Of a stretch of 64,000 bases of DNA, positions 811 through 51,936 are shown piece after piece. Both the position numbers and the translations under genes were made by a program. How positions within the stretch are numbered: position 1 is the first letter of the stretch; every line of letters begins with the position of its first letter. The notes under the pieces were generated by a model, which saw only the letters and a program-made list of their open reading frames with translations, was not told where the DNA came from and searched no databases. The DNA comes from Octopus vulgaris (Eukaryota), in the NCBI GenBank assembly GCA_951406725.2, contig OX597828.1, positions 38,502,001-38,566,000 on the forward strand, given 5' to 3'.

Positions 811-911
811 TTATATCTTTTATTTTTTGACTTGTTTCAGTCATTAGATTGCAGACATACCATGCTGAGGCAAGCATATTAATTTTTGTTGTTTTTTTTT
901 TTCTTTTACAG

Positions 912-1549
912 CTCCAGTGTTAGGAAGCATACCATTCATAATAACCAGGATGGAAGTTAAAGTGAAGCAAAGAACTCCAGAATGGTTTGAAGCTCGGAAA
1001 AAAGTAACCCTGACAGCTTCTAAATTTGGTGAAGCACTTGGTCTAGGCAGAGGCAAGCCCTACGATTTTTTTGTCTCCCTAATAGTGGACAGTGAGCATT
1101 ACCAAGAGGAAAATGAACAAACACGAAATATGAGTCATGGAATTAAAATGGAAAAAATCATTGGAGAAGCTTACGAACTATTAACTGGCTGTAAAACAAA
1201 TGAAACTGGATTTTGGGTTCCACAAGAGAGTGACTTGTTAGCTGGTTATGTTGGGGCTTCCCCTGATGCTTTGGTTTGTGAAGGAAGTGGGCTGAACTGG
1301 ACTATTGGACTTGCTGAATTCAAAGCCCCCATCTATAAACTTTACTCTGGAGATAATCTTATCCATGGCATCCCTCGAGCATATATGGCCCAAATTCAAG
1401 GACAAATGGCAATCTGTCGAATGCAATGGTGTGACTTTATGGCAGTTTGTGTAAAAACAAAAGAGATTATGCTAAAACGAGTTCACTTCTGCCGTGAATA
1501 TTGGCAATATATCTCTATGGAATTGATAGCTTTTTGCCAAGTTTTAAAG
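912..1549 (+). CDS. Coding exon of a YqaJ-like viral recombinase / lambda-exonuclease-family nuclease
   Basis: Family motifs in order: QRTPEWFEAR..LTASKF, HGIKME, ETGFW, GASPDAL, EFKAP (PD..ExK), YMAQIQGQM..CDF. Polypyrimidine acceptor ttttttcttttacAG (910-911). Donor AAG|GTATGT at 1549/1550, phase 0. In-frame ATG at 950 could be the start, or upstream exons lie outside the window. Confidence 0.9.
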
Positions 1550-1611
1550 GTATGTTGGAAATTTTTATCATAAAATTGATTTCCTCATGTAATTGTCATT
1601 AAACGAATGTT

Positions 1612-8420: not shown

Positions 8421-8795
8421 TTTATATATATATATATATATATTGGGCTTCTTCCAATTACCGTCTATCAAATCCGCTCACAAGGCTTTGGTCGGCCCGA
8501 GTGTAAGACACTTGCTCCAGGAGTCACGTAGTGAGACTGAGCCCAGAACCATGTGGTTTGGAAAGCAAACTTCTTATAAAGATGTGTACACTTATTTCTA
8601 AACTGCGTAGAAGTGCGTCGTGTGTGTGAGTGCGCGCGCGCGTGTGTGTGTGTATGTATGTGCGTATGTAGAGTGCATTACCTCCGACGCTCATCTCTTA
8701 ATGGTGTCGTGACGTCGTCATGAAATAGTCTTGAGAGACAGACATTAAAAAAGATACAAGTAAGAATGAAGAAGAAAAGAAAAAAAGATGTGAAC

Positions 8796-10016
8796 TCACA
8801 AACTGCGTGATCTCAACATAGTCGGAAAACTGGGAGAATGGCTTCATGACTTTCTGAAGGATAGAAGTCAGGTGGTAGTAGCCAATGGGGCCACCTCCAT
8901 TAACACACAAATAGTGAGCGGTGTTCCGCAGGGCACTGTTCTGGGACCACTACTTTTCATAATGGCCCTCTCAGACATGCCCTCAGCCACGCAGAGAGCC
9001 ACGATCACAAGTTATGCAGATGATACAAAAGTTTCACAGGCAATACAGAACCCTGAGGACACTAAACACCTGCAATGTGAGCTGGACGAAATATACAAGT
9101 GGGCTGAAAAGAATAGCATGCAGTTCAATGCTGGAAAGTTTCAAGCTTTATACTATCAGCATGCAAAACTGAATGCAATACCCAATGAATACACTGGACC
9201 CGGAGGGATTGCAATCCCAGAGGCACAATCAGTGCGTGACCTGGGTATTCACATGAGTGACGACGCGACCTTTCATGTACATGTTGCTAAACTGACAATG
9301 AAATGTAGACGGCTGGCTGGATGGATTCTTAGAACCTTTAGAACAAGAGAACAAGAAACCATGATGGTCCTCTGGAAGACACTTGTCCTAAGCCACTTTG
9401 ACTATTGCTCTCAGCTATGGTCACCATCCAGTGTCAAGTTGATCACAGAACTTGAGGCGATCCAACGAAGCTACACAAAGAAGATAGCCTCTATGCAGAA
9501 TGTAAGCTACTGGGAAAGACTCAAGAGATTAAAATTATATTCCCTGGAGCGTAGGCGGGAAAGATATGCCATAATATACATCTGGAAGATCCTGGAGGGA
9601 AGTGTCCTGAACTTTGGCATCGAGAGTTACGCAAATGCCAGAACTGGGCGCCACTGCGTGGTGCCTAGGACTCCAAACCTGCCATCAAGATGTAGGACAA
9701 GATTCTGTGATAGCCTGGGCTTCCGAGGCCCACAGCTCTTCAATATCCTCCCGAAGAACCTGAGAGACCTGCATGGGGTGGATACAGATGTCTTTAAAAT
9801 GAAGCTGGATCTCTTCCTGTCAGGTGTCCCAGATGAACCAACTTCACGGCAGGAGGGGCAGATGAGGGCAGCTGCATCGAACTCTCTCATGCACCAAATA
9901 GCAGTTGCTAGAAAGCCTCCATGAAGTGAAACCAAATAGCAACACCAAATGGCGGTGCCCCAGCATGGCCACAGCTCATGAGCTGAAACTGGAATCAATC
10001 AATCAATCAATCAATC
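8796..10016 (+). mobile_element. 5'-truncated CR1/L2-group LINE: RT C-terminal half, 3' UTR and (TCAA)n tail
   Basis: Open frame 8797-9924 with SGVPQGTVLGPLLF, YADD, RDLG, DYCSQLW and YWERLKRLKLYSLERRR, ending in a (tcaa)n tail. No stops in the frame, so the insertion looks recent. Confidence 0.92.
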
Positions 10017-49052: not shown

Positions 49053-49104
49053 GTCTCCGATGAAGGGATATAATTAATAAATATCCTGGAAACAGCTGTA
49101 AGGC
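49053..49104 (+). ncRNA. Minimal type I hammerhead-like motif (CCGAUGA core; mirror copy 49761-49808, minus)
   Basis: gtct-CCGATGA-ag-ggatat-loop-atatcc-tg-GAAAC-AGCT-GTA-aggc. Stem III is the palindrome ACAGCTGT. Confidence 0.65.
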
Positions 49105-49234: not shown

Positions 49235-50102
49235 TGTATGTATGTATGTATGTATGAATGTATGTATGTATGTGATGAAGCGTCTTTCAAAGTATCTCAA
49301 TGTATAAATATGCTGAGACAATCTATAAGTCATCTACAGTAAACCCAAAAGAGCTTCATCTTTTTTCTTTCTATCTTTCACAGTTATTTTCAAGAGAGAC
49401 CTTAGGCCAATAAAGCTAATACTTTAGAAAGACATGTCACTGAAGGGACAGGTTTAACACGATTAACATTAGGGCCGAAACTTCCATAGATTAATTGTAG
49501 CGTATCGAACGCGGCCATCATACCTATATATATAGAGAGAGAGCGGTTATGAGAGGTAATGGTGGCAATAAGACCCAAGGTGTCAAGCAATGCTGAGAAA
49601 GTGCTATGGTTAGACCATAGTTAAGCTCCAGGTTCGGTGATTATGCGAATAAGGAGTCCAACATAGGTCATATATCAGCATGTGTATATATGAAAAAAAA
49701 TTTTCAGACTGAGATAAACAACCAAGGCTGTGGAAATTTTAGAACATTTATAAATAGATGGTCTTACAGCTGTTTCGAGGATATCTATTATATCCCTTCA
49801 TCGGAGTCGGTGTGAGAAAATGGTTAAGCAATAGTTAATTTAGATAAGATACGAAATAGAGAGTGACGTGGAGGGATGAAAATAGATGTGAGATATGCAG
49901 GGATATTGCATTTCTAGATCCATTATTTAGGCAGAATGGTATATGTCTTGTGAGTGAAATCCAATAGTATTTAAAACTGATCATTCCAAGTATAGAGTTT
50001 GTACACAGTGCTATTGAATCAAGGGTTTATTTCGTACCTTATCTAAATTAACTATTGCTTAACCATTTTGTCACAGTCTCCGTTTTATCTCAGTCTGAAA
50101 AA

Positions 50103-50142
<40 letters not shown>

Positions 50143-50315
50143 GTAAGAATGGAGTTGAACGACGATTCATTCGACACATGTTTCGAAGGCTGCATATTCC
50201 TAATTCCGAAGGAATAAGTGCATTGTACACGCCATCTCATCAGGAAAGACAAGGAACTTATGTCAGACCATGATTTAGCAAAAACTTTTAGATGACTGCC
50301 CACATGATGTCCACA

Positions 50316-50383
<68 letters not shown>

Positions 50384-50444
50384 CTGTGGACATCATGTGG
50401 GCAGTCATCTAAAAGTTTTGCTCTTCATGGTGCTGACATAAGTT

Positions 50445-50540
50445 CCTTGTCTTTCCTGATGAGATGGCGGCACAATGCACCCTTTTATTCCTTCGGAATT
50501 AGGAATATGCAGCCTTCGAAACATGTGTCGAGAGTAAAGG
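50445..50540 (+). ncRNA. Type I hammerhead ribozyme motif with canonical core (mirror copy ~50170-50250, minus)
   Basis: ctttc-CTGATGA(50456-50462)-gatggcggca...tgcagccttc-GAAA(50518-50521)-C-ATGT-GTC-gagag. Predicted cleavage after C50529. Confidence 0.75.
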
Positions 50541-50913
50541 AATTTTGTTAAAATCGTCGTTCAACTCCATTCTTACATTTATATATATATATATATATAT
50601 ATATACATTTTTTCAGACTGAGATAAAAACGGAGACGGTGTGACAAAATGGTTAAGCAATAGTTAATTTAGATAAGGTACGAAATAAAACCCTTGATTCA
50701 ATAGCACTGTGTACAAACTCTATACTTGGAATGATCAGTTTTAAATACTATTGGATTTCACTCACAAGACATTGGAATCTTATATGTATACCATTCTGCC
50801 TAAATAATGGATCTAGAAATGCAATATCCCTGCATATCTCACATCTATTTTCATTCCTCCACTTCACTTTCTATTTCGTATCTTATCTAAATTAACTATT
50901 GCTTAACCATTTT

Positions 50914-51355
50914 CTGTCATTCGCTGCCTTCCTTCACAACAATAATAATGATCCTTTCTACTATAAGCACAAAGCCTGAAATTTGAGGGAAGGGTGCAAG
51001 CTGATTACGTAGATCACCAGTACATGACTGGTACATATTTTATCGACTTCGAAAGAATGAAAGGGAAAGTCAGCTACGATGGAAATTGAACTCAGAACAT
51101 AAAGACGGATGGAATTCTGTGAAGCGTTTATCCGGCATGCTAACGATTCGGCCAAATCGCCGCCTTACGAGAACTTTTGGGGAGGTGGGGGGGTCAGTCA
51201 ATTAGATCGACCCCAGTACGAAACTGGTACTAATTTATCGACCACGAATTTGAACTCATAACGTAAAGACAGACGAAATGCCTGGTTCAAATGACTTATT
51301 TTCTTTCTATTCATAAAACGGATAAACAAAAGTACACACACACACACACACACAG

Positions 51356-51411
<56 letters not shown>

Positions 51412-51936
51412 CTGTGTGTGTGTGTGTGTGTGTACTTTTGTTTATCCGTTTTATGAATAGAAAGAAAATAGGCATCAGTTGTATACCAAGCAAAGGCGGT
51501 ACTGATTGCACAATAACGCAGTGTCTCGTTTCACTACAGATACGTGATGCGGCTCTCGTATGTCGTTCTTGTAAATGTAGAATTTTAGACACACACACAC
51601 ACACACACATGCACGCACGCACGCATTAAGATATATCTGCGGAAAAAGAAAAAAAGAATAGGCAAAGATAACTTTGGTTTTATCTAACGTTTGATTGAAT
51701 TTAATCTTTCGTTTCCTTGAAATATGGCTTATTTCCATTTTGATTTTTATTTATCAATTTATGAGTTCCAATTTTTTTTTTTTTTTTTTTGTCATTTCAA
51801 TTGATATCACGAAAAAACATCAAGCTTATTATTTTCCTTGTCTGTGAAGAAGTTAATTCGTTCCTAAGAGACGTGGAATTAAAACATATATCCGTGAGGT
51901 ATTATTTATTTTATATTTTATTCTACTTCTAAGATA

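Follow-up and report, generated by a model that had tools for sequence, protein, structure and literature searches.

The Hydra clade of Penelope-like retrotransposons (PLEs) is recognised by a set of shared characters: an ORF joining RT with GIY-YIG, a DKT motif, absence of CCHH, CxxC and CxH motifs placed around a conserved E and N, a CxCX5C linker and RWK (Craig et al., 2021, PMC8557442). The same source already reports hammerheads in the ends of Hydra PLEs, inverted copies and one-sided tails, and lists among its families an octopus one, Hydra-1_Obim. For the element Poseidon_Ac (PAc), two internal RT starts define the tail, both target strands are nicked and extended, and the hammerhead works only when protein is present and is not required for insertion in vitro (Frangieh et al., 2024, PMC11167929). 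PLE hammerheads were proposed to be dimeric and of low activity, with circular templates (PMC4209133). Helix III of 2 bp closed by a tetraloop is the norm in invertebrates, most such ribozymes cleaving efficiently, and in the axolotl HHR_Amex2, which has such a helix III and U.U in helix II, the dimer cleaves better than the monomer (PMC7229834). Retrozymes have been framed as PLE derivatives (bioRxiv 10.64898/2026.07.22.740005). These statements, as well as the comparisons drawn below, are bounded by the portions of the cited sources that were available. In the literature searched the PLE family described here was not found, and it may already be catalogued in Repbase or Dfam; a search combining octopus, PLE and hammerhead yielded only PMC8557442, itself available in part, and none of the octopus hammerhead papers listed describes the family in its title or the start of its abstract.

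Results

Hammerhead motif and its mirror copy

An earlier note on the window (the whole 64,000-nt stretch of octopus DNA analysed) claimed a canonical hammerhead on both strands of a palindrome, with a mirror copy across a central (TA)n. The mirror copy is present in the assembled sequence, and the palindrome proved larger than claimed. The features considered here are as follows.

49057-49100, + strand: hammerhead-like motif of a second repeat family, CCGATGA core
49765-49804, - strand: second family again, hammerhead-like motif with CCGATGA core and a stem III of ACAGCTGT, immediately outside the left arm
49815-50915, no strand: imperfect palindrome of 1.1 kb, 89.6% identity, including more than 300 bp of flank on each side
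50137-50320, - strand: mirror duplicate of the same insertion, short end, core 50243-50170 intact, stem I broken
50318-50381, no strand: (TA)32, centre of the palindrome
50379-50582, + strand: 5'-truncated 3' end (pLTR part) of a PLE assigned to the Hydra clade, -151 to +53 from the cut, short end abutting (TA)n
50443-50542, + strand: type I hammerhead, intact core (50456-50462 and 50518-50529), predicted cut after C50529
50606-50915, no strand: right flank, pieces of the second repeat family, cut off just before that family's own hammerhead-like motif

Judged by sequence and predicted fold, the + strand motif is a genuine type I hammerhead. The conserved core residues and GUC triplet noted before are present as CTGATGA at 50456-50462 and GAAAC-ATGT-GTC at 50518-50529; both arms carry the core C3-U4-G5-A6-N7-G8-A9, G12-A13-A14, A15.1-U16.1, H17, and a strict hammerhead descriptor gave one match in the window versus none in 200 shuffles keeping local composition. 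The long stem II also stood up, as a 55-nt region at 50463-50517 whose third pair is U.U and which, further out, carries a C.A mismatch private to this copy. Proximal stem I pairs CTTTC (50451-50455) with GAGAG (50530-50534); the proposed extension does find distal pairs (TTCCTT 50443-50448 with AAGGAA 50537-50542), but it is broken by a 2x2 internal loop (G.A, U.U) that splits the stem. Likewise, the ACATGT assigned to stem III is truly palindromic but is not centred on the stem III axis; in register, the 8-mer of the window copy is ACAUGUGU. A dimer of ACAUGUGU would hold two G.U pairs, and the sibling 8-mer ACAUAUGU, present in 40 of 54 copies, pairs perfectly. Forcing the hammerhead fold places the + copy 3.7 kcal/mol above its free ensemble (2.9-6.7 for six sibling copies), and pairing probability of stem III in the monomer is below 0.02 in all eight folded sequences, which is no proof of dimer dependence because nearest-neighbour models ignore tertiary contacts. 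Rfam gave no match at gathering over the whole window; at E<=10 over 49900-50800 it returned 40 hairpin-driven matches of miRNA/snoRNA type, all below gathering and none of them a hammerhead.

On the opposite strand only the core survives: 17 nt are missing directly after GUC, stem I is therefore broken with about 3 bp left, and the forced fold lies 10.5 kcal/mol above the free ensemble, so that a canonical hammerhead exists on one strand rather than on two. The two cores are oriented divergently and a tandem dimer between them is impossible; being on the opposite strand, the mirror copy cannot serve as a cis dimer partner. Read-through RNA of the palindrome, comprising sense and antisense arms, is predicted to fold up as a long hairpin.

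Family identity

Membership of the family is assigned because longer copies carry, upstream of the same hammerhead, RT together with C-terminal GIY-YIG in one frame (658, 804 and 833 aa), the element measuring about 3.5 kb. The ORF displays DKT, GLYRDD, CxxC..E and CxH, and has no CCHH. In copies L031, L087, L092 and L116 the first of these motifs reads QSDKT (DKG modified to DKT); SIY..YIG follows YRDD in a single frame, the call being made by motif and by BLASTP to homologs; the conserved E and N stand between CxxC and CxH (CGLCNSE ... VN ... CKHW); and RIRWLA stands where the N-terminal RWK is expected (RWL for RWK), homologs showing RMRWKA. The CxCX5C linker is absent from all long ORFs seen, an Asn-rich stretch taking its place, and the family was therefore filed as a divergent Hydra-type one, variant in that feature. 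The search returned 146 ORF homologs at E<=1e-3, and among the 120 listed YRDD occurs in 120, CxxC..E in 108, CxCx4-6C in 107, DK[TS] in 81 and an RWK-type motif in 49. Sequence searches of Pfam and PDB with the ORF gave nothing significant. Compared by eye, the RT core resembles the Hydra rows in the available part of the PMC8557442 alignment, and insertion into (TA)n, a canonical hammerhead, partial tandem and inverted copies and a one-sided tail are all displayed by the family. The window motif is thus, with high probability, the hammerhead-bearing 3' end of a Hydra-clade PLE, in a 200-bp 5'-truncated copy set in (TA)n. The opposite-strand counterpart of this copy probably came about afterwards as a fold-back duplicate of the insertion, or else as an artefact of assembly.

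Copy number and core conservation

The 2.8-Gb genome was searched over 227 contigs. With the 191-bp arm as query 2,838 first-look candidates were obtained, 40 of which were scored, giving 52 matches, most at 95-98% identity; the exact core pattern matched 2,698 times in the genome and its reversed control 0 times. The motif is real and its context ordinary: the end of a retrotransposon with thousands of copies. In order to avoid selecting on the core, conservation was assessed on 39 of 40 RT-region matches (the query's own copy left out), where 55 hammerhead-covering segments were aligned and one duplicate dropped, leaving 54 copies. The core is intact in 43 of them, so that its loss from other genomic copies, which the earlier note had named as grounds for abandoning the ribozyme, is not what the family displays. 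Non-majority letters make up 2.5% of the 12 core columns versus 13.7% of the 175 others, and polymorphic columns number 1/12 versus 71/175 (Fisher p 0.022, with copies that are not independent). The stem III 8-mer is ACATATGT in 40 copies and ACATGTGT in 7.

Pairing was counted over 33 copies, namely 30 of the 54 (mostly a single copy from each locus, none with indels), the window copy and two young ones. Helix cells are paired in 90.7% of cases, slid controls giving 37-48%, and two compensatory pairs appear at subfamily level (C-G/U-A in stem I, G-C/A-U in stem II). Double-change cells amount to 21 versus 10.2 in shuffles, none of 500 reaching 21; pairs with double changes number 3, which 305 of the 500 shuffles reach. 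RNAalifold on the same 33 copies preferred another fold and did not return the hammerhead. From the alignments, the fold appears to be supported by the core plus modest covariation.

Ends of the insertions

A pattern downstream of the cut matched 107 sites, and 100 distinct young copies were recovered from the fetched loci. Their 3' ends fall into 58 short (about +53 from the cut), 36 long (about +206) and 6 other, and about nine in ten abut (TA)n by eye. The interval from +53 to +206 constitutes a one-sided tail of about 150 nt, which in tandem junctions precedes the ORF start, the next ATG lying at +263 from the cut. The 5' ends are spread: 3 lie within 3 nt of the cut and 10 between -4 and +8, the start being at least 14 nt upstream of the cut in 90 copies; extents beyond about -260 are lower bounds, since extension halts at microsatellite indels. 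Cleavage as the event setting the 5' end of inserted copies was rejected on those 3 in 100. The only pile of 5' ends, 14 copies at -151 to -155 including the window copy, coincides with a target-like ATTATTAC stretch. Direct upstream pLTR pieces, too, begin before or after the cut, not a single one at the cut itself. Contigs from four putative RNA runs cover the family hammerhead and tail without a pile of ends, although contigs cannot show strand, ends or expression.

Head-to-head pairs were found 75 times in the loci examined: 66 combine a short and a long end, 8 have an unclassified end, and the sole short+short pair is the window locus. The locus L034:2630-6097 is a 3.5-kb palindrome of 98.7% made of two head-to-head family copies with short and long ends. 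In the tandem junction L087:1100-1200 a predicted 12-bp helix (+160 with +247) encloses the long end and a 9-bp hairpin just before the ATG, and two small CUU-loop hairpins are modelled, one past the short end at +108 and one past the long end at +226.

Neighbouring and other repeats

The second repeat family, flanking the insertion, is distinguished by C at position 4, a short stem II and the perfectly palindromic ACAGCTGT of stem III. Its upstream part gave about 2,500 first-look candidates; in 11 copies the 1.5 kb upstream contained no ORF. L049 (775, - strand of the oriented locus) and the flank of L005 hold another hammerhead-like repeat, the third, which is palindromic in its arrangement and has a CTGAAGA core and a GATT loop. 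A different PLE ORF of 628 aa on the - strand of L088 (395-2278), with YLDD, a Cys-rich linker and GIY-YIG, interrupts a Hydra copy and by its motifs is presumably Neptune-like. Elsewhere in the window an open frame of 234 aa at 869-1573 (+) resembles, as we assume, a YqaJ/lambda-exonuclease-type domain, and 376 aa with YADD at 8794-9924 (+) are taken by us to be the C-terminal fragment of a LINE-type RT.

Discussion

Origin of the palindrome

Two private variants common to both arms were found in none of the other copies (0/70 and 0/99), a third being seen in 7/99, and the flanking second repeat family also has private variants common to both sides; thus one insertion together with its flank was duplicated around (TA)32. 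The mirrored flank extends over 333 columns at 93% and is the sole long one among the head-to-head pairs, flank matches in five others covering 53-139 columns at 79-91%. As the only short+short pair, and with more than 300 bp of mirrored flank, the window locus therefore points to a secondary fold-back duplication or to an assembly artefact. The biological route would presumably be fold-back at a broken, self-complementary (TA)n. That the pair is instead an ordinary inverted 5'-truncated PLE insertion from a single retrotransposition event would agree with the abundance of head-to-head pairs in the family and with published accounts, inverted pairs being a described PLE feature (PMC8557442) and opposite-strand pairs being placed 100-700 bp apart (PMC4209133), as far as the available portions of both go. 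This is nevertheless very improbable: short+long combinations account for 66 of the 67 classifiable pairs, the window pair is centred on (TA)32 with both arms beginning at the same base (-151), and the mirroring of unrelated flank largely refutes a one-event origin.

Harder to set aside, yet still the less probable case, is that the left arm or its deletions arose in assembly or long reads, the mirror copy being unreal or its real version intact. The large deletions (17, 15 and 4 nt), judged against both repeat families, are all confined to the left arm, and (TA)n-centred palindromes are rare, 3 among 1,236 TA runs examined, two of these three lying within the window. Against an artefact, substitutions and unequal TA lengths also set the arms apart, and a complete second-family end, missing from the right arm, follows on the left side. 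Deletions of at least 10 nt occur in 2/38 paired arms versus 0/49 solo copies, and those of at least 4 nt in 3/38 palindromic arms versus 1/49 solo copies, cases too few to call palindromic arms deletion-rich in general. No listed contig of four DNA-type sequencing runs bridges the junction of the 17-nt deletion, and such a gap proves nothing; on nanopore errors in palindromes the literature searched offered nothing of use. At 51297-51470, 400 bp from the main palindrome, the window holds a perfect (TA)n-centred palindrome with 87-nt arms. A non-autonomous retrozyme (a small tandem repeat with circular RNA) or a host-domesticated ribozyme hardly comes into consideration, in spite of the type I fold with long stem I and internal loop, which resembles canonical retrozyme hammerheads in the portions of PMC7229834 at hand: the locus has no array of small head-to-tail units, the upstream sequence leads to the 3' UTR and ORF of an autonomous element, 5' ends vary among family copies, and dozens of dispersed siblings share 95-98% identity with the window copy. 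The PLE end, duplicated by fold-back or in assembly, is hence the reading retained below.

Possible mechanism and role of the ribozyme

In the mechanism that we propose with the PAc results (PMC11167929) as a guide, the element's GIY-YIG would nick (TA)n on both strands, RT would start inside the RNA at two sites separated by about 150 nt (+53 and +206 from the cut), and one start would be used at each nicked end, giving short+long inverted pairs. Since 90 of the 100 copies cross the cut site and no 5' pile occurs there, the template would likely be uncut or re-ligated RNA, spanning the site as a tandem transcript or as a circle. The ribozyme itself would probably process tandem element transcripts, slowly and with the help of a dimer partner or of protein. 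For the family as a whole we incline towards such slow, assisted cleavage; useful cleavage of the monomer seems distinctly less probable, and complete lack of cleavage would be rather surprising. Dimer dependence as predicted from stem III is plausible by analogy, although stem III alone does not settle it because a 2-bp helix III with a tetraloop is the usual invertebrate form. At the window locus the ribozyme likely has no role.

A bolder scheme, in which every inverted insertion is made from a pair of RNA templates, with priming at two different fixed sites 150 nt apart (short and long), and the conserved self-complementary stem III 8-mer links two element RNAs within the insertion complex no less than it helps to cut them, is a speculation that we consider doubtful. 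If true, the near-strict short+long rule and the unusually long tail would make the family a test bed for PLE inversions and pLTRs. The 150-nt tail with asymmetric use of ends in inverted insertions bears on how PLE pLTRs and inversions are built and on the purpose of the ribozyme. The family is of some use as a young and abundant Hydra-type element with near-intact ORFs and an unusually long stem II; the window locus is a poor representative of it.

Comparison with known systems

Within the limits of the available portions of PMC8557442, the family agrees with the Hydra clade in the single ORF with RT and C-terminal GIY-YIG, DKT, lack of CCHH and CxxC/CxH around conserved E/N, as well as in the canonical type I hammerhead of its 3' end, the use of (TA)n as target, partial tandems, inverted 5'-truncated copies and the one-sided tail. 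It departs from the clade in the Asn-rich linker instead of CxCX5C, in RWL rather than RWK, in stem III of 2 bp plus 4 nt, in the element length of about 3.5 kb, in the stem II region (52-55 nt, the Hydra rows of table S2 giving roughly 10-25 nt) and in the tail (about 150 nt versus the published 30-40 bp). From Hydra-1_Obim it is distinct, as read from the sequences, in both hammerhead and protein, its hammerhead being unrelated to the motif listed there.

As regards the ribozyme, the available text of PMC4209133 and PMC7229834 describes metazoan PLE and retrozyme hammerheads sharing with it the type I form, short helix III, palindromic loop and predicted dimer option, and 2 bp plus tetraloop together with U.U in helix II recur in HHR_Amex2 (PMC7229834). 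Unlike the minimal PLE and retrozyme hammerheads of the same sources, it has no unpaired base between A9 and 10.1, a long stem I with an internal loop, a very long stem II and no small tandem repeat. PAc is similar in that two internal RT starts, putative here, bound the tail, targets are AT-rich and the template, here probably, spans an uncut hammerhead. In PAc the hammerhead overlaps the ORF start, RT starts inside the ORF and the portions of PMC11167929 at hand report no difference between strands, whereas in the octopus family about 260 nt separate the ribozyme from the next ATG downstream, and different starts are almost always used at the two ends of an inverted insertion.
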